Of a DNA stretch of 64,000 nucleotides, positions 2,297-36,141 are shown piece by piece. The stretch is taken from assembly GCF_001677475.2 (NCBI RefSeq), contig NZ_CP015229.1, one strand, 5' to 3'. The stretch comes from Escherichia coli. GTDB lineage: Bacteria > Pseudomonadota > Gammaproteobacteria > Enterobacterales > Enterobacteriaceae. The notes beneath the pieces were generated by a model that was not told where the DNA came from, did not search any database, and saw nothing but the letters and a program-made list of their open reading frames with translations. Both the position numbers and the translations under genes were made by a program. Numbering within the stretch: position 1 is the first letter of the stretch; each line of letters begins with the position of its first letter.

Positions 2297-3730
2297 TTAG
2301 CCTTTTTTATCCTGTTGGATCTTCTTGATAATATTAGTGGTCGAGCAACCGTCTTCAAAGTTGAGCACCAACACTTCGCCGCCGTTGGCCCAGACTTCTT
2401 TACTCCCGGCAATCTCTTCTGGTTTATAATCGCCGCCTTTCACCAGCAGGTCTGGCAGGATACCGGCGATCAAGCGCTGCGGCGTGTCTTCTTCAAACGA
2501 CACCACCCAGTCGACCGCTTCCAGTGCGCCCAGCACAATCATACGCTGTTCGAGCGGGTTAACGGGGCGGGAATCCCCTTTCAGCCGTTTGGTGGAGGCA
2601 TCGCTGTTGACGGCGACAATCAAACGGTCACCCAGTTTACGGGCATTTGCCAGATAAGAGACGTGTCCGGCGTGCAGGATGTCAAAGACGCCATTGGTCA
2701 TCACCACTTTTTCACCGCGTTTACGCGCTGCCGCTACAGCAAGCTTCAGTTCCTCTTCGGTCATCACGCCAAAGCCGGTATCTGCACGTCCACGTACTGC
2801 GTTTTCCAGCTCGATCGGCGAAACCGTGGATGTCCCCAGTTTGCCGACCACCACACCAGCCGCCGCATTGGCAAAGAAGCAGGCTTCTTCCAGCGAATTA
2901 CCCGCTGCCAGCGTTGCCGCCAGGACACCAATCACCGTGTCGCCCGCACCGGTAACGTCATACACTTCCTGCGCCTGAGTTGGCATATGCAGCGGTGCTT
3001 TACCCGGTTGCAGCAGCGACATACCCTGTTCGGAACGGGTCACTAACAGAGCCGAGAGTTCGTAATCGGCAATCAGTTTCATGCCGCGCTCAACAATCTC
3101 TTCTTCGGTCTTACATTTACCGACAACAGCTTCAAATTCCGAGAGATTCGGCGTTAACAGCGTAGCGCCGCGGTAGCGCTCAAAATCGGTACCTTTTGGA
3201 TCAATCAGCACCGGAACACCCGCTTTACGCGCCAGTTGGATCATCTGCTGTACGCTTGCCAGCGCACCTTTGGCGTAGTCAGAAAGCACCAGCGCGCCAA
3301 TCGAACTCAGTGCCTGATTAATCCGCTCGTGCAGCGGCTGCGGATCAACCCCTTCAAAACCTTCTTCGAAATCCAGGCGGATCAGCTGTTGGTTACGGGA
3401 AAGCACTCGCAGTTTGGTAATAGTCGGATGCGTCGGTACAGAAACGAAGTCGCATTTTACGTTGACGTCCGCCAGTGATTTACTCAGCGCACGCGCCGCA
3501 TCATCAATACCGGTCAACCCGACCAGGCGAGCGTTAGCACCAAGAGAAGCGATGTTCATCGCCACGTTGGCTGCGCCGCCCGGACGTTCTTCAATGGTAT
3601 TAACTTTAACCACGGGCACCGGCGCTTCCGGCGAGATACGGCTGGTGGGACCGTACCAGTAACGATCCAGCATCACATCACCAACCACCATCACTCCTGC
3701 ACGTTCAAACTCTGGCAGCGTTACTTTCAT
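2297..3730 (-). CDS. hldE: Bifunctional D-glycero-beta-D-manno-heptose-7-phosphate kinase / heptose-1-phosphate adenylyltransferase
   Basis: 477-aa ORF; N-terminal ribokinase-like and C-terminal cytidylyltransferase-like regions; conserved position downstream of glnE. Confidence 0.9.
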
Positions 3731-3777
3731 TCCTGTCTCCTGAGAGATTCAAAATTTGCGCGCGATAATATCACACT

Positions 3778-6618: not shown

Positions 6619-6640
6619 TAGCGATTTTATCCTTGCCTGA

Positions 6641-7942
6641 TTAACGTTTTCCGCTGTGCAACCAGAACGGTTCCTGATTGTTTGCCTCATTACGGAAATG
6701 TTCAATTTCAATGCGTTGACCGGTCGCAATAGCGTGATGCAGCCCCTGCCAGTTCTCCAGCCAGGCTTGCGCGACGACAGGATTGTAGTAACCCGCCAGC
6801 AACAATATCGAATCAATATCACGCGTCAGGCGTGGCAACTGGTCATGGTAGCGATCGCCTAACGGCTGGCAGAAAACGCTTTTCAGTTCCGCGGCATGGC
6901 GGGAAAGATGGATATCGGCAAAGCGTTTGAAGGAATCGCTGATTTTGCCCTGCGCTTTGGCATCTAAAAACGGCTGCCAGGCTTTGCTTACCAGCCATTC
7001 GGTCAACGCCAGCTTCGCCATCGCCGTTTCGGTAGAGTAGACCGCCGTTACGGCAGACACCGCAGAAGCGATGGTCGCTTCGCATTGAGTCAGTAAATCA
7101 CGTAAGTGAGTGCTCGCTTTACGCGGCACAATGCCACCGAACAGCATCAGCGTATGGCGAACAAGGCCAATGGCTGCCAGCACCTGCTCTTTCGCCGCAT
7201 CGTTGCCGCGTACCCACAGTTCTTCATGATACTGCCATTGCGCTAACGCCAGCTCGAGCGCCGCTTCCAGCCCCTGTTCCACATCAGCTTTTGCCGCAAC
7301 ATGCAAAATGGTGGTCGGTTTGATTTCACGCGCGGGATTGCCCTGCGCCAGATGATAGCCACGCGCCGCTTTGCTCAGGCTGCCCTGGCGTAATCCGGTT
7401 TGCGATACCAGTTGGTTCGCCAGTTTCAGCACCGCGCGCGTGTCGCCGCTAAGCAGTTCCAGTTCCAGCTCGCAGATAGGTTCAGCAAATTCACCCGCTT
7501 TCACTTCCCCCTGGTCGAGGGCGATTTCAATTTGGCTACCATCAACCTCTACCAGCCACTTTTCGCGATAAAAATCGGTGCTGAACAGCGGTTGTACGCG
7601 GGAAGCAAGATCGGCAGGCAATTCGCCGTTCGGCCAGACTTCCGTCGGTAACTGCGCCAGGTCGAGCGTCGGTTCGCTCAACGCCACGTTATATTCCGGG
7701 CGCTGGTGTAAGCCGCCTGTCACTCTTCCTGCAACTTTCATGGTCATCTCATAGCGACCGTTTTCGCCACGAATACGCAAGCCCATGTCGTGCCCACGCA
7801 GCCAGTTATCCGGCGTTTCGTAGTAAATATTCAGCAACTGCACGGGGTCATGGTGCTCGCCGCCCAGCGTATTGAGATGGTCACGCAACGCCTCAACGGC
7901 ACTGTGATTAACAATAAACTTTAATTCGATTTCCTGAGCCAT
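6641..7942 (-). CDS. ygiF: Inorganic triphosphatase (CYTH domain)
   Basis: 433-aa ORF starting [11 protein letters not shown]; conserved ygiF-glnE-hldE arrangement. Confidence 0.88.
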
Positions 7943-8183
7943 AGCCTTTACTTATCGGTTATGTCACATAAGTGACGATGAACGGCGAACTTAATGCGAT
8001 CTTTTTTGTCAGTAGATAGTATTTTGCGCCAAATTGCCATGCAACGGGCAATTTGACGGGCGTAAAAGTTTGAAGCAGTGGCAAGACCTGACACAGAGGA
8101 TTCCGATTGATGTCGAATGCTTTGCGTAGCGACACTGATGCCACTACTATCGTTCCACTTTCCATGACAATAACGACAGCCTG

Positions 8184-8804
8184 ATGCCAAAATTACGCCT
8201 GATCGGATTAACTTTACTCGCACTTAGCGCCACTGCCGTCTCACACGCTGAAGAAACGCGCTATGTTTCTGATGAACTGAATACCTGGGTCCGTAGCGGT
8301 CCGGGAGATCATTATCGCCTCGTGGGCACGGTTAACGCCGGCGAGGAAGTGACCTTATTACAAACTGACGCCAACACCAATTATGCCCAGGTGAAAGACA
8401 GCTCTGGCCGTACCGCCTGGATCCCGTTGAAACAACTTAGCACAGAGCCAAGCCTGCGCTCCCGTGTGCCAGATCTGGAAAATCAGGTCAAAACCCTGAC
8501 CGATAAGCTCACCAATATCGATAACACCTGGAATCAGCGCACCGCAGAAATGCAGCAAAAAGTGGCGCAGAGCGACAGCGTGATCAACGGGTTAAAAGAA
8601 GAAAATCAGAAACTGAAAAACGAGCTGATTGTCGCGCAGAAAAAGGTCGATGCCGCCAGCGTACAGCTGGATGACAAACAGCGCACCATCATCATGCAGT
8701 GGTTTATGTATGGCGGCGGCGTGCTGGGGCTTGGCTTGCTGCTCGGTCTGGTACTGCCGCACCTGATCCCAAGCCGCAAACGCAAAGATCGCTGGATGAA
8801 CTAA
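8184..8804 (+). CDS. ygiM: SH3-domain protein with signal peptide and C-terminal TM anchor
   Basis: 206-aa ORF; N-terminal signal-like segment and hydrophobic C-terminus. Confidence 0.85.
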   Translation: MPKLRLIGLTLLALSATAVSHAEETRYVSDELNTWVRSGPGDHYRLVGTVNAGEEVTLLQTDANTNYAQVKDSSGRTAWIPLKQLSTEPSLRSRVPDLENQVKTLTDKLTNIDNTWNQRTAEMQQKVAQSDSVINGLKEENQKLKNELIVAQKKVDAASVQLDDKQRTIIMQWFMYGGGVLGLGLLLGLVLPHLIPSRKRKDRWMN

Positions 8805-8867
8805 ATCGCCTTCTTCGTTGCACTGTCTTATTATTAGGAATTGTGTATTTGACGAAGGGATGATGGC

Positions 8868-10106
8868 GTGAAGATTTATCTGGTCGGTGGTGCTGTTCGG
8901 GATGCATTGTTAGGGCTACCGGTCAAAGACAGAGATTGGGTGGTGGTCGGCAGTACGCCACAGGAGATGCTCGACGCGGGCTACCAGCAGGTAGGCCGCG
9001 ATTTTCCTGTTTTTCTGCATCCGCAAACGCATGAAGAGTATGCGCTGGCACGTACTGAACGGAAATCCGGTTCCGGTTACACCGGTTTTACCTGCTATGC
9101 CGCACCGGATGTCACGCTGGAAGATGATCTTAAGCGTCGCGATCTGACCATTAATGCGCTGGCCCAGGACGATAACGGCGAGATTATCGACCCGTACAAC
9201 GGTCTGGGCGATCTGCAAAATCGTCTGTTGCGCCATGTTTCCCCCGCTTTTGGCGAAGATCCGTTACGCGTATTGCGCGTGGCGCGTTTTGCTGCGCGTT
9301 ATGCCCACCTCGGTTTTCGTATTGCCGATGAAACTCTGGCACTGATGCGCGAGATGACCCATGCGGGTGAACTGGAACACCTGACGCCTGAACGGGTATG
9401 GAAAGAGACGGAAAGCGCCCTCACCACCCGCAATCCCCAAGTCTTCTTCCAGGTACTGCGCGATTGTGGTGCACTGCGCGTTTTATTCCCGGAAATTGAC
9501 GCCCTGTTTGGCGTTCCGGCCCCTGCCAAGTGGCATCCGGAAATCGACACGGGTATTCATACCTTAATGACGCTCTCAATGGCGGCGATGCTGAGTCCGC
9601 AGGTCGATGTCCGTTTCGCAACGCTATGCCACGATCTCGGTAAAGGACTGACGCCGCCAGAACTTTGGCCGCGTCATCATGGTCATGGCCCGGCGGGTGT
9701 TAAGTTAGTGGAACAACTCTGCCAGCGTCTGCGTGTGCCAAATGAAATTCGCGATTTAGCCAGACTGGTGGCTGAGTTTCACGATCTCATCCACACCTTC
9801 CCAATGCTGAACCCAAAAACCATCGTCAAATTATTTGATTCCATCGATGCCTGGCGTAAACCGCAGCGTGTCGAGCAACTGGCGCTGACCAGCGAGGCTG
9901 ACGTGCGCGGCAGAACCGGTTTTGAATCGGCGGACTACCCGCAAGGCCGCTGGTTGCGCGAAGCCTGGGAAGTGGCACAGTCAGTGCCGACAAAAGCCGT
10001 CGTTGAAGCGGGATTTAAAGGTGTGGAGATTCGCGAAGAGCTGACCCGACGGAGGATTGCGGCGGTAGCCAGCTGGAAGGAACAACGTTGCCCAAAGCCT
10101 GATTAA
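8868..10106 (+). CDS. cca: tRNA nucleotidyltransferase (CCA-adding enzyme) with HD domain
   Basis: 412-aa ORF from a GTG start, [12 protein letters not shown]...; HD motif (HDLGK) in C-terminal half. Confidence 0.9.
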
Positions 10107-10140
10107 CTTTTTAAATTCAGTATATTGCAGAAATCCTTTA

Positions 10141-10175
10141 GGTCGGATAAGACGCACAAGCGTCATATCCGACAC
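10141..10175. repeat. REP-type palindromic element
   Basis: ggtcggataagacgcacaagcgtcatatccgacac, an imperfect palindrome of the REP family, in the cca-uppP intergenic region. Confidence 0.6.
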
Positions 10176-10185
10176 TATCTCTCAA

Positions 10186-11007
10186 TCAAAAGAACACAAC
10201 GTACACCGCAGCTGCCACAATAAAGCGATAAATGGCGAACGGGATAAACGAAATGCGCTTAATCAGTTGCAGGAAGGTTTTAATCGCTATCAGTGCCACC
10301 ACAAAAGCGGTGATAAACCCAACGGCAAACATCGGGATATCGCCGGTTGTCAGGAAGCCCCAGCTTTTGTAGAGATCGAGCGCCGTTGCGCCCATCATCA
10401 TCGGCACCGCCAGCAGGAACGAGAACTCGGAAGCAGCGTAACGGCTCACGCCCATCAGCATCCCACCTGAAATGGTCGCCCCGGAACGGGAGAAACCCGG
10501 CCACAGCGCCAGACACTGGAAACAGCCAATCATAAACGCCTGACGATAGGTCATATCATCAAGACCCGGCGCACGCGGCTCTTTCGGCTTCAGGCATTCG
10601 GCGGCAATCAGCAACAAACCGCCAACGACCAGTGCATACATCACATTTATCGGGTTAAACAATGACTTAATCGTGTCGTGGAACAACAGCCCCAGTACCA
10701 CCGCCGGAATCATCCCCAGCAAAATGTGGATCAGCGTTAAACGACCTTTGCTTTCTCCTTCGTGCTGCAACGGGCGGCCAAAGTGGATGCCAATCAGGCC
10801 AAACAGACGCCGCCAGAACATCACTACTACCGCCAGAATTGATCCTAACTGGATCACAACTTCAAAGGTTTTCGCCGTGTCGCCCTCAAACCCCAACAAG
10901 TGACCGACAATAATCATATGGCCCGTGCTGGATACCGGCAGAAATTCTGTCAATCCTTCGACCACACCCAATATTGCCGCTATCAGCAGCGAGTGCATAT
11001 CGCTCAT
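10186..11007 (-). CDS. uppP: Undecaprenyl-diphosphate phosphatase
   Basis: Polytopic membrane protein; the recognised N-terminus [14 protein letters not shown] begins at the ATG whose complement is at 11005-11007 (ORF track adds one upstream TTG codon). Confidence 0.88.
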
Positions 11008-22475: not shown

Positions 22476-22551
22476 GGCCCCTTAGCTCAGTGGTTAGAGC
22501 AGGCGACTCATAATCGCTTGGTCGCTGGTTCAAGTCCAGCAGGGGCCACCA
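22476..22551 (+). tRNA. ileX: tRNA-Ile (anticodon CAU, lysidine-modified)
   Basis: 76-nt sequence ggccccttagctcagtggttagagcaggcgactCATaatcgc...gggccacca folds as a canonical cloverleaf with CAT anticodon and encoded CCA; its 3' 46 nt are repeated at 36093-36141. Confidence 0.92.
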
Positions 22552-22554
22552 GAT
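22506..22554 (+). repeat. attL core (3' part of ileX plus 3 nt)
   Basis: Exact 49-bp identity with 36093-36141, read directly from the sequence. Confidence 0.85.
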
Positions 22555-23356: not shown

Positions 23357-23641
23357 TTACCGCCGCAGTCGTTCCGGCTTCTTCCACTGGTAAGTATTTT
23401 TCGCGCTCTCCCTCCGTTGTTGAGAACGGCGACGGTATGCCAGCAACTCAAGGACTCTGATCCGTATGTCGCGCATATCCACGCCGTTAAGCTCGATACC
23501 GTCACGGCGCATCATCTCTGCCACCACACGCGCGTAATTTTCGGCTATCACGCTGTCCGGCTGCGTGGCCTCCTATTTGCTTGATGGTTGTTTGATTCCG
23601 GTAACGCGGCGGATTAATCCCAGCAATTCAGATTCTGTCAT
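23357..23641 (-). pseudogene. Amber-interrupted ORF downstream of terS (remnant of a packaging-module gene)
   Basis: MTESELLGLIRRVTGIKQPSSK, then in-frame TAG, then the 64-aa ORF 23357..23551 in the same frame; start overlaps terS stop. Confidence 0.35.
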
Positions 23642-23652
23642 AGTGCGCTACG

Positions 23653-23973
23653 TTACTTGTCTTTATTCGGCTGCAACTTATCCGGCACATTTCCGGTAGT
23701 TTCCATCAGGTAATCAGCCAGTATCTGTGGGAGGTTGTCGGCAACTCTGGCACTGGCATTACAGGCTTTAACCACTTCCCTTTTAAGCCCATCCAGCATA
23801 GCGGGGGTAATGTGTGGGAAGCTCCTTTGCATAGTAAGCGGGAGGCTGTCCATGATTGATGAAATCTGACTCGCCAGTTTTGAAAGCGCGTACATGCAAA
23901 ACTCTGTATCAATCACGTCACCGCGATCGCGCTCGTTTTTAAGTTCCTGCGCCTCCGCCTGTGCTGTCAGTAA
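23653..23973 (-). pseudogene. Small terminase subunit (lambda Nu1-like), C-terminal fragment separated from its N-terminus by the IS insertion
   Basis: Translation ...AQAEAQELKNERDRGDVIDTEFCMYALSKLASQISSIMDSLPLTMQRSFP... parallels lambda Nu1 C-terminal region (...AQADAQELKNARD...ETAFCTFVLSRIAGEIASILDGLPLSVQRRFP...) from memory. Confidence 0.7.
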
Positions 23974-24085
23974 TCTGATCCTGACTCGTAAGTATGAGAC
24001 GACAATAACTCAGTCCGCCTGGCGCCGATTATTCTGGCCGGTTTTGTAACCTGAGTGTCATTTACATGATCCAACAGGAAATGGC

Positions 24086-25465
24086 GTGACGCTCAATACT
24101 TCTCAGGTCAGTTACTATATGACTCAGCGTAAGAAAGGTATAACTCAGCATATCTCGGCCATGAAGGCTGGTATCTCAGTCCGTTCTGGTCGTCGGATCG
24201 AAAAAGGAGAGTGGGCAAAAAACAGTGTTCGGCACTGGCGCACACGCAAAGATCCTCTGGAAGCTGTGTGGGACAGCATGCTTGTTCCTCTGTTGAAAGA
24301 GAGGCCGGCTCTGACACCAACAACTCTACTGGAGATGCTACAGGATAAATATCCCGGCCAGTACCCCAACAGCCTTCGAAGAACAATGCAACGGCGGGTT
24401 CGCGAATGGAAACTACAGTATGGTACAGAGCAGGAGGTCATGTTCCGCCAGCAACATCAGCCCGGCCTGCGAGGCCTGTCGGACTTTACTGAACTGAAAG
24501 GTGTAGTTGTCACCATCGCCGGTAAGTTGTTGGCGCATAAGTTGTATCACTTCCGTCTGGAATGGAGCCACTGGAGCTGGATGCGGGTTGTTCTGGGTGG
24601 TGAGAGCTTCTCTGCTCTGGCTGAAGGCCTGCAGGAAGCCCTCGGACAACTGGGCGGAGTGCCGGTAGAACATAAAACGGACAGCCTGAGGGCAGCATGG
24701 AAACAACAGGGCGAAGATGGACGCCGCGAGCTGACTGAGCGTTATGCTACTCTCTGTCAGCACTACGGAATGCAGGGCGTACACAATAATGCCGGTCGGG
24801 GCCACGAAAATGGCTCGGTTGAAAGTGCCCACGGACATCTGAAAAGGCGTATCTGTCAGGCGCTGATACTGCGGGGCAGTAACGACTTCAGCACCATAGA
24901 AGAATATCAGGCCTTCATCACTCAGCAGGTTATGCGGCACAACCGTAACAATCAGGATCTGGTCAAGGAAGAACGTCTTCATCTGAAACCGCTGCCGCTT
25001 CGTCGCAGTGCTGACTATGATGAGCTGACTGTGAGGGTTAGTCGCAGCAGTACCATCAATGTGAAGCACGTCGTCTACAGCGTACCTTCCCGGCTTGTAG
25101 GTCAACTGTTACGGGTCAGGTTATGGGACGATCGTCTGAGCTGTTACGTTGGCAGCAGCGAGGTCATGAGCTGCCCTCGCGTCAGACCAGAAAAAGGGAA
25201 GACGCGGGCCCGTCGTATCGACTTCCGACATGTGATCGACAGTCTGGCAAAAAAGCCCGGTGCGTTCTGCCATGCAACGCTGAGAAATGACATCCTGCCG
25301 GACGATGAATGGCGGAGGCTGTGGCGTCGCTTATGTAATCATCTGGAGCCCGATATGGCAGGAAGGCTGATGGTACATGCCGGGAAACGTGGATCTGCAC
25401 CGGCTGATGCGCTTCCTGGGTATAAAAGAAAAGGCGTTGCCGGTAGTCAATGTGATACAGCATAA
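24086..25465 (+). CDS. istA: IS21-family transposase IstA
   Basis: 459-aa ORF (GTG start) with N-terminal HTH and DDE-type catalytic region; sits immediately upstream of an IstB-like gene. Confidence 0.8.
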   Translation: MTLNTSQVSYYMTQRKKGITQHISAMKAGISVRSGRRIEKGEWAKNSVRHWRTRKDPLEAVWDSMLVPLLKERPALTPTTLLEMLQDKYPGQYPNSLRRTMQRRVREWKLQYGTEQEVMFRQQHQPGLRGLSDFTELKGVVVTIAGKLLAHKLYHFRLEWSHWSWMRVVLGGESFSALAEGLQEALGQLGGVPVEHKTDSLRAAWKQQGEDGRRELTERYATLCQHYGMQGVHNNAGRGHENGSVESAHGHLKRRICQALILRGSNDFSTIEEYQAFITQQVMRHNRNNQDLVKEERLHLKPLPLRRSADYDELTVRVSRSSTINVKHVVYSVPSRLVGQLLRVRLWDDRLSCYVGSSEVMSCPRVRPEKGKTRARRIDFRHVIDSLAKKPGAFCHATLRNDILPDDEWRRLWRRLCNHLEPDMAGRLMVHAGKRGSAPADALPGYKRKGVAGSQCDTA

Positions 25466-25510
25466 CCTGAGCAGTTATGAGCAACTACTGCGTGGCAAGG
25501 GAGGTTCGCA

Positions 25511-26266
25511 GTGAGCAATATCCATCACCTTGAACATAGCCTGCGTAAACTACGCCTGACACGAGTTGGAGCTGAATGGCACGCTCTGGAAAAACGAGCG
25601 CTGGCAGAAGGCTGGACACCATCGCGCTATCTTCTGACGCTATGCAATGAAGAACTCCTGTGGCGCGAGAGTGAAAAACTGCGTCGTTATAAAAAGGAGG
25701 CCCGGTTGCCAGTTGCCAAAACGCTGAGCGAATACGACTTCAGTCAGGTGCCGGAACTGAATGGAGCTCAGTTCCGGCAACTCTGTGAAACGACAGACTG
25801 GGTTGATGCAGGAGAAAACGTTCTGCTGTTCGGAGCCAGCGGGTTGGGGAAAAGCCATCTGGCGGCAGCGATCGTGGATGGCGTAGTAGGTCAGGGCTAC
25901 CGGGCCCGGTTCTACAGCGCAGGAGAGCTGTTGCAGGAACTACGTAAAGCCAGAGCTCAGTTGAAACTGAATGAGCTGCTACTGAAACTGGATCGCTACC
26001 GGGTGATAGTGGTGGATGATCTTGGCTATGTCAAACGCGATAGTGCCGAAACGGGTGTGCTGTTCGAGTTAATAGCGCATCGCTATGAACGTGGGAGCCT
26101 GGTGATAACCAGTAACCATCCGTTCAGCATGTGGGGCAGCATCTTCGTGGATGAGACTATGGCGGTGGCTGCGGCAGACAGGCTGATCCATCACGGATAT
26201 ATGTTCGAACTGAAAGGGGAAAGCTACAGGAAAAAGACAGCGAAGGCAGTAACAAGCGCGACTTGA
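25511..26266 (+). CDS. istB: IS21-family helper ATPase IstB
   Basis: 251-aa ORF with Walker A (GASGLGKSHLA) and Walker B (VIVVDDLGY) motifs; RBS gggagg upstream of GTG start. Confidence 0.85.
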   Translation: MSNIHHLEHSLRKLRLTRVGAEWHALEKRALAEGWTPSRYLLTLCNEELLWRESEKLRRYKKEARLPVAKTLSEYDFSQVPELNGAQFRQLCETTDWVDAGENVLLFGASGLGKSHLAAAIVDGVVGQGYRARFYSAGELLQELRKARAQLKLNELLLKLDRYRVIVVDDLGYVKRDSAETGVLFELIAHRYERGSLVITSNHPFSMWGSIFVDETMAVAAADRLIHHGYMFELKGESYRKKTAKAVTSAT

Positions 26267-26325
26267 TGTCGCCCTGAAGGGTGCGGCCAGTATAGTTGGC
26301 GCGAGTCGGCAAAACTAGTTGACGT

Positions 26326-26526
26326 CTAATATCGTAAGAGTTCATCATCATCAATCTCGCCTTTGTCGTTTGTAAGCTGGCTAATTGCATTGTTAACCCT
26401 ATTGTCTATCACGCTGGCAACATCATAAAACGCCTCACGGCCTTTACGTTCAACGGGAGTCACTCCCCACTTGTCGAATGCTGTAGCACTTACCCGGCAG
26501 CTTTGCGCCATGGTTTTTTTGTTCAT
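26326..26526 (-). pseudogene. Small terminase subunit (lambda Nu1-like), N-terminal fragment truncated at the IS boundary
   Basis: MNKKTMAQSCRVSATAFDKWGVTPVERKGREAFYDVASVIDN... parallels lambda Nu1 N-terminus (MEVNKKQLADIFGASIRTIQNWQEQGMPV...); ORF ends exactly at the IS junction. Confidence 0.7.
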
Positions 26527-26639
26527 CAGGTGCGATTTCATCAATATCCCAACTTGGTCAAGGTTTCAGGTTGGTGTGTTGGTGTTATCTTTCCCTTTTT
26601 ATTCATGGAGATAGAGCAAACAACAAAACCACCACCACC

Positions 26640-26745
26640 CCCCTGAAAAAGCTCATAAATAGCGAAAAACCGCGAGGTCGCCGCCCCGTAACGGGTCCAT
26701 ATGCCGGAAAGGACCCGTAAAAAAAGCCGGATTTCTCCGGCCTTG
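26640..26745 (-). other. Lambda-type cos site (cosN with flanking terminase-binding region)
   Basis: Minus strand reads ACGGGTCCTTTCCGG...CGTTACG-GGGCGGCGACCT-CGCGGTTTTTCGCTATTTATGA, nearly identical to the phage lambda cohesive-end region as I recall it (GGGCGGCGACCTCGCGGGTTTTCGCTATTTATGAAAA); lies ~150 nt upstream of the Nu1-like start. Confidence 0.75.
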
Positions 26746-26747
26746 TC

Positions 26748-27161
26748 TCAGATGGTTTTCAGTATGCGATCGATGTCGCCATCATCGCCCGGGTTTCTGC
26801 CAGCGTATGCCATACCAGCTGATACGGCTTTCGGGCTGTGCATGTCCATAAAGTTTTCAAAGGCTGCGGTAAGCTCTGGTGCAACCTTCTGGCGTTCCTG
26901 CTCTATGGTCATGCTAAGGATGCTTTTAGCCGTACCAACATCGATACAAGGCACGTTTGCCATTGCACGTAACAGCGGCTGATAGTCGCCAGATTCATCA
27001 AGCGCCATAATCGCATCAGAGCGCGGCTTGTCCTTCTCTTCCAGGCTGTTAAGTTGATATACGGCCTCGTAGGTTGATAAACCTCTGTCAGCCATTGCCC
27101 GCGCTTCGGCCTTAAATTTACTCGCCAGCGGTAGCGTCATGATGCTTTCATTCGTTGCCAT
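26748..27161 (-). CDS. Hypothetical protein (137 aa) between decoration-like gene and cos
   Basis: ORF with no motif I recognise; co-oriented with capsid genes. Confidence 0.55.
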   Translation of the reverse strand: MATNESIMTLPLASKFKAEARAMADRGLSTYEAVYQLNSLEEKDKPRSDAIMALDESGDYQPLLRAMANVPCIDVGTAKSILSMTIEQERQKVAPELTAAFENFMDMHSPKAVSAGMAYAGRNPGDDGDIDRILKTI

Positions 27162-27173
27162 CGTTCCCTCTGC

Positions 27174-27509
27174 TTATCGGGCCAGTGGCTGAACGGATAC
27201 GCCAGAACCCGCAAAGGCGGCGCATTTTTTCGCATCGGTGTCGACGCTCTCAGGCCAGTTAACGGCGGCGATATTAAATATCCCCGTCTTATAGCACTGT
27301 GCTGATTTCTGCGTCGACGTGTCAACGGGGTACGAGGTCAGATAAACAGCCTTGCCAGATTCCTGACCATCCCACGGCTTAAACTCGCCATTTTCCGCCA
27401 GCATCAGCGGGGTAAATTCCTGAATAACTCCAGCATCAGCGGCAAAATGTACCAGCGTCGTGGATACCTGCTGACTGCCTGCAAATAACTCAATGTATGG
27501 AGTGTTCAT
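27174..27509 (-). CDS. Head decoration protein (lambda gpD-like)
   Basis: 111-aa ORF, size and position next to an E-like capsid gene match lambda D (110 aa); assignment by context and size, weak sequence recall. Confidence 0.6.
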   Translation of the reverse strand: MNTPYIELFAGSQQVSTTLVHFAADAGVIQEFTPLMLAENGEFKPWDGQESGKAVYLTSYPVDTSTQKSAQCYKTGIFNIAAVNWPESVDTDAKKCAAFAGSGVSVQPLAR

Positions 27510-27520
27510 AGAATCCCCCG

Positions 27521-28576
27521 TTAAGCAATTTTGACGGTAACAAATTTGCGAATATCTGCCGGTACCGGCTGCGGTGCGCTGTGCGTCTGCACGTACTCAA
27601 TCGCCGGATCGCCATCCTCAATCCAGTTTTTCGGGTAGTACATGTTTTGCGTTGCGCCAGTTCTTACCGCTTCCGGATCCATAATCGCACCATAGGCCAC
27701 CAGCCCTTTATTGTTAGTGTTGCCCAGGACAAGCAAATCAGGCTCAAGGAAATATTTTTCGGTGCCATCGCTGTCGGTGTATTTGCCGGAATAGACGATA
27801 AGGGCCAGATCACCCAGATAGCCTTTAAAGCTCACCACTTCGCCCAGGTTTTTACAGGCCAGCTCTGCGGCGGATTCTGAACCACGGGAAAGATCGTACA
27901 GTTCACGGAATTTTTTAAAGCTGCGTAACGTGCGCCATACCTCAGCGCCCATAATCATGACGTTGGCGGGGCAACCAGCCTGATCGGTGTATAGTTCGAT
28001 GTCATAGATTGGATCGTGTGTTTCCTTATCTGCCTCAGACCACTTTTTGCCCGATCCCTGCGTAATGATGTTTTTAGTCGGGATTTTCCAGTCGATTTCG
28101 TATCTATTTATTCCTTCGCCCTCAATGATGTTTTTTCCGGTCGTGACCGCATTCACCGCCAGCCATTCTATGCGAGCTTTAATAGCGTTTACCTGGCGGC
28201 GCATGTTGCCAGTAATCAGGCGCATACGGCGATAAGTTGGATCGTTAAGCTGTGCCGGATCTTCTCCAGCCATGCGCATGATGGTTTTTGATGGATCGAT
28301 TTCGTGTTTTGGTTTCATATAGCCAGGGCGGATAGTGCTTGTTTCGTACCCTTTATCGCGCTGAACCTGACTCCCCACCATAGGCGAACAAAAAGCCGAC
28401 ATGGTGACTTCTTCAATATCCAGGGTATCTAACATGATGTCCTGCGTGTTGAAGGTTGCCACGTTCGGGAAAAACAGCGACGTAAACAGCGGACTGAATT
28501 TAAATTCCGAAATATCCCCACGATTCAGGTACGCGAAAAGCTGGTTAGTGTTAAGTGCCGTTGCTTTGCCTGTCAT
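27521..28576 (-). CDS. Major capsid protein (lambda gpE-like)
   Basis: 351-aa ORF aligning along its length with lambda E from memory: FKFSPLFTSLFF / FKFDPLFLRLFF, PGYMKPKHEIDP / PGYVKPKHEVNP, YSGKY...LVLGNTNN...YPKNW / YSGQY...MVLGNTQA...YPKNW. Confidence 0.8.
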   Translation of the reverse strand: MTGKATALNTNQLFAYLNRGDISEFKFSPLFTSLFFPNVATFNTQDIMLDTLDIEEVTMSAFCSPMVGSQVQRDKGYETSTIRPGYMKPKHEIDPSKTIMRMAGEDPAQLNDPTYRRMRLITGNMRRQVNAIKARIEWLAVNAVTTGKNIIEGEGINRYEIDWKIPTKNIITQGSGKKWSEADKETHDPIYDIELYTDQAGCPANVMIMGAEVWRTLRSFKKFRELYDLSRGSESAAELACKNLGEVVSFKGYLGDLALIVYSGKYTDSDGTEKYFLEPDLLVLGNTNNKGLVAYGAIMDPEAVRTGATQNMYYPKNWIEDGDPAIEYVQTHSAPQPVPADIRKFVTVKIA

Positions 28577-28815
28577 TATTCACCCCCATGAGTCTGATTC
28601 ATGCCCAGCGCCGCGCGTAAATAGGCGCGTACCTGCCAGCCTGTTGACGGCTCAACCATCGCCAGCGGCTCAAGTCCTGCCGCAATGCCTGCTTTTACGT
28701 TCTGCTGGTGGCGTTCCTTGAGCGCCTCCACGATGTCTGGGCTTATGTAAACTGTCACCCCGCCTTTTTTCTCTTCTGCCATAGTCGGAAATTCCTCTTT
28801 GACGTTAAAAATCAC
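28576..28815 (-). CDS. Hypothetical small protein translationally coupled to the capsid gene
   Basis: 79-aa ORF (possibly starting at internal MAEEKK); stop shares one base with the capsid ATG. Confidence 0.5.
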   Translation of the reverse strand: MIFNVKEEFPTMAEEKKGGVTVYISPDIVEALKERHQQNVKAGIAAGLEPLAMVEPSTGWQVRAYLRAALGMNQTHGGE

Positions 28816-28846
28816 AACTGGATGTTCATCCAGTTGTGATTATAAT
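28811..28846. promoter_or_regulatory. Perfect 14-bp inverted repeat plus TATAAT box upstream of the capsid operon
   Basis: atcacaactggatg-tt-catccagttgtgat immediately followed by tataat; read directly. Confidence 0.45.
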
Positions 28847-28951
28847 CATGATTTCATTTTACGCAATAATGTTGAGTTGTGTTGCAAATTGTGAAATGAT
28901 TTCCGGCAACAGTAGTCACCATACTGTTAGATAAAAGCCTCATATGCAAAA

Positions 28952-29028
28952 GCCCGATAAGACCCTCTGACCTTATCGGGCTTTTTTTGGGGCATAAAAA
29001 AGCCGGACTTCTCCGGCTTCTGTTACTC
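28952..29028. terminator. Pair of intrinsic terminator hairpins between the SSB gene and the capsid operon
   Basis: gcccgataag...cttatcgggc followed by T-run; and gccggacttctccggc flanked by A-run / T-run (functional on minus strand). Confidence 0.55.
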
Positions 29029-29033
29029 GTTGC

Positions 29034-29456
29034 TTAAAACGGTATGTTATCCCCGTACGGATCATCGTTACCCGCCTGTTGTTTTGCCCTGTTCAGTGCG
29101 TCAGTAGCCTGCCCTTGCTGGCCTTTTTTGCCGCCCGGTCGCGCCGTTCTCGCACTGATTACGCTGTCTGCGATAACCTGCCAGCCCTGCCGCGTTTCGC
29201 CGTTCTGGCCTGTCCACTGGCTTACCTGCATGTTACCCGCCACGCTCACCAGTTCGCCTTTGTGGTGTTTTGCCAGTGCGTCGGCCTGTCTGCCAAACGC
29301 CAGGACGGATAACCACATCGTCGCCGTTCCGTCATCTGCCTGGCTGCACGGAAGGGGGACCGCCATACTAGCCATCGTCATTTGTGTACCCTTGCTGGTG
29401 GTCTTTAACTGCGGGTCAGCCACCAGCCGCCCGTAAGCCGCTATCTGTGCTGTCAT
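29034..29456 (-). CDS. Single-stranded DNA-binding protein (island-encoded SSB)
   Basis: 140-aa ORF; Gly/Gln-rich linker and acidic C-terminal tip ...DDPYGDNIPF resembling the SSB C-terminal DDDIPF motif. Confidence 0.75.
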   Translation of the reverse strand: MTAQIAAYGRLVADPQLKTTSKGTQMTMASMAVPLPCSQADDGTATMWLSVLAFGRQADALAKHHKGELVSVAGNMQVSQWTGQNGETRQGWQVIADSVISARTARPGGKKGQQGQATDALNRAKQQAGNDDPYGDNIPF

Positions 29457-29698
29457 GCTGTCTGCTCTCCGGTTTTAACGTTGATGGTTGTCACCTGTTC
29501 CGCTTCGGCAATCTCCCGTTCTGTCAGCGTGGCAAAGTTTGCAGCTGCCGTTGTCATGAATGCGCTAATCAGTTCGGGATGTGCTTTCGCATATCCTTCC
29601 CCGGCGTTGCGGTCGATGATTTTTATCGACACCCTTAACCAGTGTTCCGTCAAATCAAGGGCGTGCGATTGTGATTTTTTTGTGTGCTTCGCTGTCAT
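29453..29698 (-). CDS. Hypothetical protein (81 aa), coupled to ssb by ATGA overlap
   Basis: ORF directly downstream of the iteron array; no recognised domain. Confidence 0.5.
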   Translation of the reverse strand: MTAKHTKKSQSHALDLTEHWLRVSIKIIDRNAGEGYAKAHPELISAFMTTAAANFATLTEREIAEAEQVTTINVKTGEQTA

Positions 29699-29742
29699 AG
29701 GCTTTATCTCACAGCAGTAAATTAAAATTTTTGCGTTTTAAC

Positions 29743-29971
29743 CCTTCACCTGTTCACCTTTTGATATTTTCCATTTAAATTCATACTGTTAAGGGGTGAA
29801 CAGTTTCACAAAAACTATTCACCAACTGTTCACCACTGTTCACCCTTGAAGCTCAATAAACAACCAAAAAGGTGAACAGTGAATAGTTTGGTGAATAGTT
29901 CATAAATAACTGTTCACCCTATAATATACTGATATAAAAGATATTTATGACAGGGTGAACAGTGGTGAACA
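29743..29971. repeat. Iteron array (P4 ori/crr-type TGTTCACC octamers)
   Basis: Perfect TGTTCACC at 29751, 29827, 29837, 29911 and its complement GGTGAACA at 29795, 29871, 29954, 29964, plus degenerate copies (tattcacc, ggtgaata), within ~230 bp immediately 3' of the primase gene. Confidence 0.8.
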
Positions 29972-29985
29972 GTTATTCCATAAGT

Positions 29986-31803
29986 TTAATTTTTGCTATC
30001 GTCATTAGTGACTGATACACATGATGGCATCCAGTCTTCTGATTCCTCCGTCAGTGTCACGTTTGAACGTAAACCGTGCTTCGTTTTCCGTTTTATATAC
30101 TCCCTGCCATATTCCGCCATTGCCCCAGGCATATCTTTACCGAAGCGCGTCAGTGTTACAGGTTTACCAAACCCATGAGCCCTCATATAAGCCAGATAGG
30201 CATGATAGAGATACCTGCGCGGGCTGAATGGCACAATTTCAGCATTACCCACTAACAGGCCATCACACATTACCGACGCCATGAGATAGCCGCAGAAGTC
30301 CACCAGCGAATCCCCCTCTCGCTTTATCGCCAGTGCTTCTTCAGATTTCTGCTGCTCATATAACAGGCGTCTGGCTTCGTCCTGGTCAGCAAACCTTGTA
30401 AGCAGATGGCGAATCACTACCGCCAGCTCACCTTCTATTTTTTCCGCCAGCATCGGATCGCGTTCGTTCTCCGGTACAACTTCCGAAAAATTGAATATCA
30501 CCCGACGACGTGAGATCCCCCCGCTGCGGTCACTGAATGACATGGCGTTATTGTTAACCGCCAGCACTACTGCCGGAATACGCGTTGAGTAGGGGGCTTT
30601 GTGTTTCGGGTCAATTGCCACCTTGTCACCGCCTGTAATGGCCTTAATTCCTGCCCCATCACCAGCGTAGCGGGTCATATCCGGCATGATAATCAGCGAA
30701 AAGCCAACCACTAACGCGCGTTCCCTTGCATCTTCCAGCGCCTTCATGCTTGCCGATACTGTGTTGGCCTTACCCGCCAGCATGGTGCAAATCTCCGCCA
30801 TCACGCTTTTACCACTTCCCCCTGGACCTGTTACCTCAATGAATAACTGCCAGTCGTACCGGTTCGCCAGCACCATGAATAATGCAGCCAGTACGCGATC
30901 CGCCTTGCGGTCATTCTCAGCCACCGAACGGCGTAACCACTTCCAGAAATTCGGCGCATGTGTTGCCAGCGTTTCCCCCTCTGCTGGTGGGCTGAAAGGT
31001 AATTCACTGGCAATTAACAACCAGTCGTTTTTGTTATGCTCCCGAAAATTACCTGTTCTGGTATCAAATACCCCGTTACTGAATCCAATCAGGTTACGGG
31101 CTGTATTCCCCATTACAGGCAAACTTAACTTCATGGTATCGACCGCCGATTTAATGGCGTTCTGCGAATAGCTGATCTCCGCATCAATGAAAATCTGCGC
31201 CATAGCACGCTGTAACTCTTTATCCTGAACCGGCTCCCATACAACGCCGTTGTAATGGTGAACAGTGTCAGAGTCAGCATGAATCGCCAGTTCACCGCCA
31301 TAATGTGCCAGGAGAACTTCGCCGCGTTGACTTGCTCCCATCTGGTTAAGCGCCAGTGATGAAGCGTTATCGTCTTTTACCCGCTCTTTTTTCTTTACAG
31401 GCAGTTCAACTACCTTTTTCTTTTCCGCCAGCTCTGCCCGTTCACGTTCCAGATATTCGCGCCAGTTCTCCCGTTTCTGGCTGTGCATTCCTTCAGGATA
31501 ATAATCAGCATCCCTGACACCTGCCGCTGCCAGTTTCTGCCCGATGGTATTAACAAGCCCCGGACGCAATAACCCCGCCTGGTAGAGACGCACACGATAG
31601 CGTCCGTCCGGTACGATTTGCAGGTTGTCCAGTTCGGCAAGTTGTTGCTCTCCAAGCCAGACAGGAGGCACGTTATCGCCAGCCAGTCGCCCGTCCTGTT
31701 CCTGCCACTGCTTCGCATGTGCCCACGCATCACTACCCGCAAAAATGATGACTTCCGTCATTTTGTCACGTGGCTGGTGTTTTAAATTTGGCGCTTTTTT
31801 CAT
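29986..31803 (-). CDS. Satellite replication protein (P4 alpha-like primase-helicase, D5-type NTPase)
   Basis: 605-aa ORF (likely start MKKAP with ATGA overlap to upstream gene); Walker A GPGGSGKS; adjacent to TGTTCACC iterons. Confidence 0.75.
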   Translation of the reverse strand: MKKAPNLKHQPRDKMTEVIIFAGSDAWAHAKQWQEQDGRLAGDNVPPVWLGEQQLAELDNLQIVPDGRYRVRLYQAGLLRPGLVNTIGQKLAAAGVRDADYYPEGMHSQKRENWREYLERERAELAEKKKVVELPVKKKERVKDDNASSLALNQMGASQRGEVLLAHYGGELAIHADSDTVHHYNGVVWEPVQDKELQRAMAQIFIDAEISYSQNAIKSAVDTMKLSLPVMGNTARNLIGFSNGVFDTRTGNFREHNKNDWLLIASELPFSPPAEGETLATHAPNFWKWLRRSVAENDRKADRVLAALFMVLANRYDWQLFIEVTGPGGSGKSVMAEICTMLAGKANTVSASMKALEDARERALVVGFSLIIMPDMTRYAGDGAGIKAITGGDKVAIDPKHKAPYSTRIPAVVLAVNNNAMSFSDRSGGISRRRVIFNFSEVVPENERDPMLAEKIEGELAVVIRHLLTRFADQDEARRLLYEQQKSEEALAIKREGDSLVDFCGYLMASVMCDGLLVGNAEIVPFSPRRYLYHAYLAYMRAHGFGKPVTLTRFGKDMPGAMAEYGREYIKRKTKHGLRSNVTLTEESEDWMPSCVSVTNDDSKN

Positions 31804-32099
31804 TTCTGCTCTCTCCACGCGGCAATCATGTTTTTCAGTTCCTGTAGTTTTTTATCAACATCCATACATGACACATGGTTATTTCTGGAAGGCGGGATTT
31901 CCCGCCGGAATCTGCAAATAAAGATCTCCACGTTCAGCGAGCTATGAAATGAATAGCCATCACGAATAAAATACACACGGTCAAACATTATCGATTTTAC
32001 TGTTACTCTGTTGCCGTTCTTATCCCGATAAATAGCGCCGGGGATAATTTTGGGATGTGCATAACCGCTGGCAGTCAAGCCAGATAAATACGTTCTCAT
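31800..32099 (-). CDS. Hypothetical protein (99 aa)
   Basis: ORF translationally coupled to the primase gene; no recognised domain. Confidence 0.5.
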   Translation of the reverse strand: MRTYLSGLTASGYAHPKIIPGAIYRDKNGNRVTVKSIMFDRVYFIRDGYSFHSSLNVEIFICRFRREIPPSRNNHVSCMDVDKKLQELKNMIAAWREQK

Positions 32100-33709: not shown

Positions 33710-33786
33710 AATAGCCAGTTGCTGTGGGGAGGTTACCAGTTATTTAGCCTTAATAGCCAGCTATTAAGATACACTAGCCAGCTATT
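33710..33786. promoter_or_regulatory. Three TAGCCAG-containing operator-like repeats upstream of alpA
   Basis: aatagccagttgc (33710), aatagccagctatt (33752), ctagccagctattg (33773); plus inverted repeat atcaccgtg...cacggtgat at 33651-33682. Confidence 0.45.
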
Positions 33787-34507
33787 GGGGGTGAACAAGT
33801 TCAAACGAAGAATATTTATCAGGTCTTGGTGGTTGTGCTCCTGATTCTTTAATCCATTTATCCAGAGTGTTTTTACTTACTTTCCCATGATAGTAAACAG
33901 AAAGCTCGTTCAATAAACCTGTTTTACTGGCTTTAGGGTACTTTTCCCATGTTAGTTTAATTACGTGCATAACTTCATTGTAATAATGATTTCTTGGTTT
34001 GCGCGCTTTTTCTTTCTGTGATAAGGATAAAGCATCTTTTATTTTTTTATCTTTTTCATGGTTCGATATAATTTCTTCAAAAAAGTCATTAAGCAATAAC
34101 TCAACACCAACCCTAGTAAGTTTGTCTGCGTGATTACGCATTCCGACATGGTACAATGCAACTGCTGAATTTAAAGTATCGACAACCTGACAAGATAGTT
34201 TACTATCAAATATTAAAAAACCACATGAATCCATTCTTATAGCTAATTCAATAGGATATTGCTCGATTTCTCTTAATTCTAAACCATAACACAAAAGAAA
34301 TTCTCTTGTTGGATACTTTGATTTATAAAAATAATCTCTTATATCATCAATCAAGCGTTTTATAGCCTCTATGGTGGAGTTTTTCGGGGATAAAGATACA
34401 GGAACGTTTAAAACTGAAGAGTCTCGCCCACCAGTAATTAAATCATTCATAACCGAATAAATAATATATTGTTTGACCGATATATTGTTATCACCCATAT
34501 ATGTCAT
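33782..34507 (-). CDS. AT-rich orphan protein (241 aa) in the integrase-proximal cargo position
   Basis: Long ORF with visibly lower GC than the rest of the island; overlaps the int stop; no motif I can recognise. Confidence 0.6.
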   Translation of the reverse strand: MTYMGDNNISVKQYIIYSVMNDLITGGRDSSVLNVPVSLSPKNSTIEAIKRLIDDIRDYFYKSKYPTREFLLCYGLELREIEQYPIELAIRMDSCGFLIFDSKLSCQVVDTLNSAVALYHVGMRNHADKLTRVGVELLLNDFFEEIISNHEKDKKIKDALSLSQKEKARKPRNHYYNEVMHVIKLTWEKYPKASKTGLLNELSVYYHGKVSKNTLDKWIKESGAQPPRPDKYSSFELVHPQ

Positions 34508-35912
34508 TCTTTTCTTGTACTATAGCAAATAGTAAACGACGTTTTTCATCATCACTCATGCCCTCCAGTGCGGAAAGTAATTGCGCATCGATAGATTTTT
34601 TACTCTCCACCAGCCCGGCATGTTCCAGAATTGCCCGTTCTATCCGTGATGCTGGCTCCAGCAGTTCATCAGCACCGAAATGTAAATACCCCTGCGTTAC
34701 GTCGGCACTTCGCATAGTGCGGTGATTCATCAGGCGCTTGAGGATGTAATTACCCACGCCCACCAGCTCAGCAACCGTTCCGAACGTCCGGCGTGCGTCG
34801 TGCCACTTAAACGGGACAGGGAAGAGCATTTCATCGTTCGCCTCAGGAATGGTAGCCGCGCTTATCCGGTCTATGATGTGCCGTGTCTCCTGAATCACTC
34901 CCTTCACGCCAGGAAACACCAGCACATCATCAGCAGCTTTGTTTTTTAGCCTGCGAAGAAACATTTTCCGCAACGTATCAGTGATCGGCAGTTCAAGCGG
35001 ATCCCCGTTTTTCGTGGTGTCTATCCAGAAAAAGCGACCGCCCATATTCACGCGATCCCACGTAAGGCCAAAAACTTCTGATTTCCTCAGTCCGGTAAAC
35101 AGTGCCATTTCCACGGCATCACATACCGTAACAGCTATATCATCCCTTTCCTGTTCGCCCTGGTCGCGCACAGCAGCTACAGCAGCAAACCAGCGGGGAA
35201 AATCATGCAGGCGGATACGTTCCGTTTTTCTTACCGTTCCGTGCCACTGGCGCTTGGTGCTCAGTACCAGAGTCGGCGGATCCGGTAAAAGAGTATTACC
35301 CGCATCATCACGGTAATGATCATGCGCAAACCGACACACAGCACGTAGCGCACGCGCCCATAAATCGGCCTGTGCCTTGCTTCCTGTACCAACCCCAGCC
35401 CGTAACGTGGTTTTATCAGCACCGAACCATACAGCCCCATCAGTGATGGCCTTATGCCGTTGTTCCACCCGTTCGCGGGAAATACTGGCGAGGGTATGGG
35501 CCATCCAGTCACCGGAATAATTCTGTAATATGCTGCGGTACTGTTTTTCTGTGGAGGGTTTCAGGCGGTGGCCACGATTTTTTACGTAGGCGTCAATCGC
35601 CTCACTCAGCGTTATCATGGCCTTGTTGTTAGTGCGCTTTGCTATGTTCGGATTTATCCCCGTTGTGGCGACTTCGCCAAGGAGTTCCATAGCTTTAGCC
35701 CTGGCATTATCCACGCTCAGATCAGGAAAACGCCCCAGCGTTGCACGAATAAATTTTCCGTTACGCTTACGGGAAATGCAGAAACTTTTCACACCAGACG
35801 AACCTACACGGACACGCAGCCCGTTAACCTCCGTATCACCATATTCGACCTGTCCATGTTCCGGCGTTGGCAGTTCTGCAATTTTTACTTTAGAGAATCT
35901 GAATAATTTCAC
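34491..35912 (-). CDS. int: Tyrosine site-specific integrase
   Basis: 473-aa ORF from a GTG start; catalytic signature region (LRKSE..., WHDARRTFGT, ...QGYLHF) with an N-terminal arm-binding-like domain. Confidence 0.85.
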   Translation of the reverse strand: MKLFRFSKVKIAELPTPEHGQVEYGDTEVNGLRVRVGSSGVKSFCISRKRNGKFIRATLGRFPDLSVDNARAKAMELLGEVATTGINPNIAKRTNNKAMITLSEAIDAYVKNRGHRLKPSTEKQYRSILQNYSGDWMAHTLASISRERVEQRHKAITDGAVWFGADKTTLRAGVGTGSKAQADLWARALRAVCRFAHDHYRDDAGNTLLPDPPTLVLSTKRQWHGTVRKTERIRLHDFPRWFAAVAAVRDQGEQERDDIAVTVCDAVEMALFTGLRKSEVFGLTWDRVNMGGRFFWIDTTKNGDPLELPITDTLRKMFLRRLKNKAADDVLVFPGVKGVIQETRHIIDRISAATIPEANDEMLFPVPFKWHDARRTFGTVAELVGVGNYILKRLMNHRTMRSADVTQGYLHFGADELLEPASRIERAILEHAGLVESKKSIDAQLLSALEGMSDDEKRRLLFAIVQEKNDIYG

Positions 35913-36092: not shown

Positions 36093-36141
36093 ACTCATAA
36101 TCGCTTGGTCGCTGGTTCAAGTCCAGCAGGGGCCACCAGAT
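36093..36141 (+). repeat. attR core (displaced partial copy of tRNA-Ile 3' end)
   Basis: 49-bp exact copy of 22506-22554; upstream sequence is not tRNA-like, so this is not a functional tRNA. Confidence 0.85.

Follow-up and report, generated by a model that had tools for sequence, protein, structure and literature searches.

A lambda-like capsid, decoration and scaffold-like gene operon in a phage-inducible chromosomal island at ileX of Escherichia coli, with a putative role in helper head assembly

The window analysed here, a 64,000-nucleotide stretch of the Escherichia coli contig NZ_CP015229.1 (assembly GCF_001677475.2), carries rpoD, mug and the tRNA gene ileX, at which a phage satellite is integrated. 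In this island, which extends from ileX to an integrase gene and has nearly all of its genes on the minus strand, an operon is found in which a gene for a 68-residue protein is followed by genes for a capsid protein resembling lambda gpE, a decoration protein resembling lambda gpD, and a 137-residue protein related to lambda Nu3 (hereafter mini-Nu3); cos and a gene for a Nu1-like small terminase subunit (terS) lie beyond them (Table 1). The E-D-Nu3-like order of the island is the exact reverse of the Nu3-D-E order of lambda, with all genes on one strand. An initial annotation, made from the sequence alone, had pointed to the E-like and D-like genes, to their reversed order upstream of cos and terS, and to the satellite nature of the element. 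These points were borne out, since E precedes D in 11 of 11 related islands inspected and the element contains an integrase, a helix-turn-helix (HTH) regulator, a P4-type primase, a single-stranded DNA-binding protein (SSB), cos and terS.

The 351-residue protein matches the Pfam family Phage_cap_E (PF03864; E 3.6e-52, residues 26-349) and the PHROG major head protein family (E 5e-110), and it aligns along its full length with lambda gpE, as had been claimed (43% identity over 342 aligned residues, E 9e-94); it also matches the lambda capsid chain 7VI9 (E 2e-82). The initial annotation would have been overturned by a protein lacking the HK97/E fold, and the opposite was found: the protein is 94.3% identical, across all 351 residues, to c1499 of E. 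coli CFT073, the crystal structure of which is PDB entry 3BQW. This entry serves in the literature as a representative of the HK97 type and as a molecular-replacement search model for another capsid protein. In the alignment the protein keeps the full length and the conserved core of the family, and it has residues of the island lineage that are not found in lambda or in the lambdoid prophage of CFT073. From its sequence, the protein is thus assigned as a full-length, HK97-fold capsid protein of the gpE family that is predicted to assemble into a shell. A related protein of 463 residues (P0072) combines the Phage_cap_E and HDPD domains in a single open reading frame, which is either a capsid-decoration fusion or a sequencing artefact.

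The 111-residue product of the adjacent gene, which had been called D-like by size and position, belongs to the Pfam family HDPD (PF02924; E 5.8e-18) and is 37% identical to lambda gpD and 95.5% identical to c1500 of CFT073. Its closest relative of solved structure is the SHP protein of phage 21 (PDB 1TD0, E 2.9e-14), followed by lambda gpD chains (E ~1e-9). It is therefore classed as a decoration protein of the gpD/SHP family, for which binding as trimers to the expanded capsid lattice is predicted. The identity of the capsid and decoration genes, taken jointly, is practically certain. When this island is compared with the CFT073 island EcCICFT073 and with an island of E. coli O157, the ratio of nonsynonymous to synonymous substitution rates (dN/dS) amounts to 0.10-0.14 for the capsid gene and 0.05-0.15 for the decoration gene, values by which both genes are judged to be under purifying selection and functional. 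For the 137-residue and 68-residue genes the ratio is 0.2-0.6.

The initial annotation had further stated that portal, protease or scaffold, and terL genes are missing, so that the satellite would carry only paralogs of the capsid shell. The absence of portal, protease and terL holds, and tail and lysis genes are likewise without a match among all island open reading frames screened; the part of the statement that concerns the scaffold does not hold, because directly downstream of the decoration gene lies mini-Nu3. In a profile-profile comparison (hhalign), the mini-Nu3 family matches lambda Nu3 and its relatives with a probability of 97.5% (E 8e-12) over 119 columns, equivalent to positions 72-192 of lambda Nu3 (201 residues). 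Mini-Nu3 also matches the C-terminal end of phrog_53, the PHROG family of head maturation proteases, and an 83-residue stretch of it aligns at 36% identity with the C-terminus of gpC as encoded by the lambdoid prophage of CFT073; in a tblastn search it matched a phage gene that bears the annotation Nu3. The relationship required profile methods, since a phmmer search of 1.8 billion representatives recovered just 9 proteins, mostly fragments; some databases already label the protein a head-tail (pre)connector. The structure predicted for it consists of helices only, among them a short terminal one, and has a flexible tail; the model gave no match in a fold search, while a sequence search of the PDB returned a chance match only. 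No Pfam match was obtained, and the protein, of only 137 residues, has no S49 protease domain of the gpC type. On this profile evidence, mini-Nu3 is homologous to the C-terminal part (~120 residues) of Nu3, and also to the gpC C-terminus, without the protease domain; it differs from lambda Nu3 in lacking the N-terminal third and in not being nested inside a protease gene. Since a scaffold homologue is present, the island holds capsid, decoration and scaffold genes and not shell paralogs alone. In the islands L011, L012, L013 and L014 the decoration gene is followed by a gene for a Phage_AlpA-domain protein of 114-145 residues, and in the Salmonella island L008 this slot is empty.

At the other end of the operon, the 68-residue gene and the capsid gene meet in the sequence TAATG, where the stop codon of the former overlaps the start codon of the latter; the 68-residue gene is kept in all close relatives. 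Its product is predicted to have an extended N-terminus followed by two helices, and it has no significant match in Pfam, in the PDB or in fold searches (Foldseek against the PDB returned nothing). A ribbon-helix-helix regulator was considered, for which only insignificant Pfam matches were found (RHH_1, E 5.9; BrnA, E 0.36). A relationship to lambda FI was also tested, because the reversed gene order would place FI at this gene, and was rejected (hhalign probability 0.1%). The protein is a candidate regulator or assembly factor. Upstream of it, the inverted repeat that overlaps the promoter-like site (AATCACAACTGGAT gaac ATCCAGTTGTGATT) would fold as RNA with -20.8 kcal/mol (z = -4.3), and EcCICFT073 preserves the symmetry of its 14 bp by a paired C>T / G>A change. 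The palindrome could be an operator, or a terminator close to the promoter. The two terminator-like hairpins further upstream were read by eye and were not listed by an automatic terminator scan; they are kept in EcCICFT073 and in the O157 island. No LexA box was seen by eye upstream of the operon, and no operon protein or accessory gene matched a PADLOC defence model.

Table 1. Coordinates, in the window, of the head operon, the island backbone and the island borders
Feature	Position	Strand	Basis or remarks
ileX tRNA, CAU anticodon, integration site	22476..22551	+	ARAGORN; tRNA-Ile at this gene in RefSeq annotation of sister locus
Left att repeat copy	22506-22554		49-bp direct repeat of ileX 3' half
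Remnant of conserved 93-aa island gene (phrog_1561), beyond terS	23357..23641	-	In-frame stop; intact in TUM1886 and CFT073
terS 3' fragment	23653..23992	-	PHROG terminase small subunit, E 5.5e-26; aligns to L001 8667-9007
IS21-family element splitting terS	23993..26331	+	istA 24086-25465; istB 25511-26266; 7-bp duplication TCGTAAG
terS 5' fragment	26332..26544	-	PHROG; intact orthologue compared
cos region	26650..26720	-	Exact lambda cosN GGGCGGCGACCT at 26675-26686, between head genes and terS
137-aa mini-Nu3, directly downstream of D	26748..27161	-	hhalign, PHROG, tblastn; putative c1501 orthologue
111-aa head decoration protein of gpD/SHP family, c1500 orthologue	27174..27509	-	Pfam, PDB, comparison with lambda gpD
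351-aa major capsid protein of lambda gpE family (HK97 fold), c1499 orthologue	27521..28576	-	Pfam, PHROG, PDB 3BQW
68-aa conserved protein (phrog_3255)	28576..28782	-	Putative c1498 orthologue; no recognisable family or fold
Conserved promoter-like site TTGCGT, 16 nt, TATAAT	28810..28866	-	Overlapping 14-bp perfect inverted repeat, then T run
Two terminator-like hairpins, between replication genes and head operon	28946..29015	-	By eye; kept in EcCICFT073 and O157 island
Replication module	29034..31818	-	SSB 29034-29456; 81-aa protein 29453-29698; P4/D5-type primase 29986-31818
Excisionase-type HTH regulator, 72 aa	33430..33648	-	Pfam HTH_17, E 1.7e-11; TIGR01764 excisionase; phrog_66
Tyrosine integrase	34491..35912	-	phrog_1 integrase, E 9e-40; tyrosine-type recombinase annotation in sister locus
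Right att repeat copy, duplicate of ileX 3' half	36093..36141	+	49-bp direct repeat

The att repeats enclose a unit of 13.6 kb, or 11.2 kb without the insertion sequence (IS). Besides the head operon, this unit contains the replication module, whose primase belongs to phrog_864 (DNA primase, E 6e-192) and has the C-terminal domain of P4-family primases, as well as DUF4222 and small proteins without known function. In related islands AlpA occupies the slot that is held here by the excisionase-type HTH regulator, and the latter has no match to PF05930, which those islands carry in that position. The gene adjoining the integrase (33782-34507, minus strand) encodes a 241-residue protein without PHROG or PADLOC match, in a slot where phage-inducible chromosomal islands (PICIs) often hold accessory or defence genes. 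SatelliteFinder counts "capsid morphogenesis" as one of five core PICI components (PMC10085698), and the core set of Gram-negative PICIs is found here: a terminal integrase with att repeats, a regulator next to the integrase, a primase-replicase and a capsid morphogenesis gene. The island also has terS and a cos of helper type, lacks tail, lysis, portal and terL genes, and without the IS has a length within the expected 10-20 kb. The island is a Gram-negative PICI of EcCICFT073 type, with ileX as its integration site. For the orthologous EcCICFT073, induction, packaging and transfer have been shown to require a helper phage (PMC6092414). The flanks of cosN are invariant among this island, EcCICFT073, the O157 island, the CFT073 lambdoid prophage and lambda, and the cosB side differs.

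The nearest relative is an island at the same ileX site of E. coli TUM1886, which is 99.5-99.8% identical, has the same gene set with terS intact, and contains no IS; a check proposed with the initial annotation, namely to look for the same E/D pair in another ileX-integrated island, is thereby answered positively. In 10 further islands the capsid proteins are 52-94% identical to that of the window. The complete four-gene block also occurs in EcCICFT073, in an O157:H7 island at the phoQ/roxA site and in an island near yejO. In the distant islands of Salmonella, E. coli and Serratia, in which the capsid proteins are 52-68% identical, capsid and decoration genes follow one another within an integrase-regulator-replicase backbone. 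None of the 11 related islands inspected contains a portal, protease or terL gene. Of 5426 complete E. coli genomes, 590 carry the 2.7-kb module at a coverage of at least 80%. Among 50,697 phage records the best match to the capsid protein reaches 47% identity, and the island-borne relatives are 52-99% identical. The E-like and D-like proteins form an old lineage specific to satellites and are not a recent capture. One of the distant pairs (52% identity) belongs to L013, an island at 3292-10812 of the Salmonella contig AAEGCM010000006.1, which lies between the baseplate/tail-fibre and tail-tube genes of a P2-like prophage and appears to be helper-embedded in a non-lambdoid prophage.

The satellite-borne E/D pair is already known, and its finding here is a rediscovery, as near-identical copies (c1499 and c1500 of EcCICFT073) were described in 2018 (Fillol-Salom et al., 2018; PMC6092414). 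EcCICFT073 shares with this island the four-gene block, with proteins 93-95% identical, the cosN, the upstream control region and the backbone of integrase, HTH regulator, DUF4222, primase and SSB. The two differ in their site, which is phoQ/roxA in EcCICFT073 and ileX here, and in that EcCICFT073 carries rppA where this island and those of TUM1886 and O157 carry a Nu1-like terS; only the island of the window has a split terS and a stop codon in the 93-residue gene. The CFT073 lambdoid prophage at icd, which was used as the helper prophage in our comparisons, is probably the helper of EcCICFT073. Compared with lambda, phage 21 and this prophage, the island shows 43-46% identity in E, 37-47% in D, homology to the C-terminal part of Nu3 and an identical cosN. 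Unlike lambda, it has the reversed order and no portal, protease, terL, W, FI or FII gene.

Among other satellites, a capsid gene is present in 21 of 29 reference Gram-negative PICIs (PMC10111431). Helper-embedded PICIs (11capE) are of the same island type and have the same E-D pair but sit in a late gene of a prophage, whereas the island described here sits in a chromosomal tRNA gene (PMC10111431). An example is L012 (1511-13073 of a metagenome scaffold), in which the island lies within the E gene of a lambdoid prophage, split into fragments of 91 and 254 residues, an arrangement that agrees with the published helper-embedded PICIs. Ccm of SaPIbov5 and CpmB of SaPI1 are, like the proteins described here, satellite-encoded homologues of a helper capsid or scaffold protein. 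They differ in producing small capsids and helper interference, neither of which has been found for the orthologues of this module. Moreover, Ccm is 23% identical to the helper capsid protein and has no accompanying decoration protein, whereas the island capsid protein is 46% identical and is accompanied by one.

Capsid-forming PICIs (cf-PICIs), e.g., EcCIEDL933, share with this island the integrase, alpA and replication backbone and a capsid gene of their own. Since the island has capsid, decoration, scaffold-like and terS genes, it might be asked whether it is itself a cf-PICI that builds complete capsids and steals only tails. This is next to impossible, because portal, protease, head-tail adaptor or connector, terL and HNH genes, which define the cf-PICIs and with which these build their own small capsids, are found neither in this island nor in the 11 related ones. 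The capsid genes of cf-PICIs and PICIs also separate in phylogenies (PMC10085698).

The reading that we favour, at somewhat better than even probability, is that the genes constitute the conserved late ("capsid morphogenesis") operon of an EcCICFT073-type PICI at ileX and act in the heads of the helper. The mechanism taken by itself, in which island shell proteins join helper head assembly, is more tentative, and its chance lies rather below even. In this scheme, induction of a lambdoid helper would lead to excision and replication of the island, and the helper large terminase, directed by the island terS or by Rpp, would cut at the island cos. The capsid, scaffold-like and decoration proteins would be expressed from the operon's own promoter and would assemble on the helper portal, alone or mixed with helper gpE and gpD, supplying the most abundant components of the head, and the heads would then be filled with island multimers. 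DNA of the tested orthologue does enter full-size heads as multimers, with which a length of four times 11.2 kb (~45 kb) is consistent. With a competent helper, as lambda or phi80, the genes would be redundant; they would become useful if the helper shell proteins were limiting, incompatible or defective.

Several observations weigh against a role in helper heads. Deletion of c1499 or c1500 leaves both the interference with lambda and the transfer by the resident prophage unchanged (PMC6092414), and replacement of c1498-c1501 by cas9 retained transfer with phi80 as the helper (Ibarra-Chavez et al., 2020; PMC10530653). By gene order and by the extent of this block, we infer that c1501 and c1498 are the 137-residue and 68-residue genes, respectively. 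Since these deletions leave transfer intact, a structural role is not essential with the resident CFT073 prophage or with phi80. In addition, mini-Nu3 is not universal, its slot being taken by an AlpA-domain gene in four inspected islands and empty in one, and one related island (L013) resides in a P2-like prophage. Phages of the P2 type have their own capsid protein, of another family than gpE. Finally, no experiment in the literature shows the E-like and D-like proteins of an island entering virions. In the published transfer studies the markers were placed within c1501, or in the place of c1499 or of c1498-c1501 as a whole, and none of the published experiments consulted determined which proteins make up the particles when the operon of the island is intact. 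The published dispensability fits a redundancy with the helper (PMC6092414, PMC6739421, PMC10530653).

The initial annotation had proposed that the shell paralogs could remodel capsids, and a related explanation is that the E-like protein changes the size or shape of the capsid, or poisons helper head assembly, in the manner of Ccm, resulting in interference and satellite-sized heads. Mini-Nu3 resembles CpmB of SaPI1, which imitates the C-terminal end of its helper's scaffold protein, and the 11.2-kb monomer would suit a small shell. Small heads are indeed produced by Ccm, and also by PmCI172, an island that carries a capsid homologue (PMC6893505; PMC6092414). The tests on orthologues have nevertheless been negative so far: EcCICFT073, whose proteins are 94% identical, yields phage-sized DNA when packaged with lambda, and deletion of c1499 or c1500, besides altering neither interference nor transfer, does not restore lambda plaques (PMC6092414). 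As to poisoning, when the genes that lie downstream of ori were expressed singly, c1503 (rppA) was the only one to inhibit lambda (Fillol-Salom et al., 2019; PMC6739421), and a poisoning subunit would not need a cognate decoration protein. It is because such a protein, together with a scaffold homologue, accompanies the capsid gene that a lattice-forming role is favoured over that of a single poisoning subunit, and size redirection or poisoning is considered quite unlikely.

A similarly low probability is given to a role outside the virion, in which the proteins would act as a decoy or trigger of capsid-sensing host systems, in phage exclusion, or in enabling defective lambdoid prophages, by complementation, to act as helpers. 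Such a role would account for strong purifying selection on genes that are dispensable for transfer, and agrees with a promoter that has an operator-like palindrome and lies apart from the replication genes, as well as with helper-embedded PICIs, which break the E gene of the helper yet carry their own (L012; PMC10111431). The lack of any PADLOC match among the operon proteins speaks against it, as does the retention of the full length and conserved core of structural capsid and decoration proteins. That the genes remain from a lambdoid prophage that has decayed and has lost the rest of its head module by the IS21 event or by other deletions was the alternative named in the initial annotation. 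An IS21 element does lie 1 kb away and the neighbouring 93-residue gene has a stop codon, but the head genes that are missing here were not deleted by the IS, because the IS-free TUM1886 island and 10 other islands lack them too. The same compact arrangement recurs at other integration sites and in Salmonella and Serratia, dN/dS is ~0.1, no phage capsid protein exceeds 47% identity, and the replication and integration genes are of PICI type, all of which makes a prophage remnant extremely unlikely.

Participation in helper heads could also take a stronger form, although this is unlikely, in which the operon is a self-sufficient shell kit and the island builds its own head shell on a stolen portal. 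If true, such islands would stand, in evolution and in function, between the classical PICIs, which take everything from the helper, and the cf-PICIs, which take no more than its tails, and lambdoid prophages with a defective or interrupted E or D gene could serve as helpers. To learn why capsid and decoration genes, in many cases with part of a scaffold gene, are retained under purifying selection by hundreds of islands, although the model island is transferred in their absence, would show how far satellites can substitute for the structural proteins of their helpers, and may have a bearing on the use of islands as delivery vehicles, in which this block now counts as free cargo space.

The island of the window itself adds a further example, partly degraded through an IS, to a satellite type that is found in about one tenth of complete E. 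coli genomes. The inserted element was assigned to the IS21 family by the NCBIfam models transpos_IS21 and IS21_help_AAA, both exceeding their cut-offs. The intact terS orthologue encodes 180 residues and is 36% identical to lambda Nu1; split by the IS21 element, terS is probably non-functional in this strain. Together with the stop codon in the 93-residue gene, the broken terS suggests that this copy of the island is decaying and may mobilise poorly.

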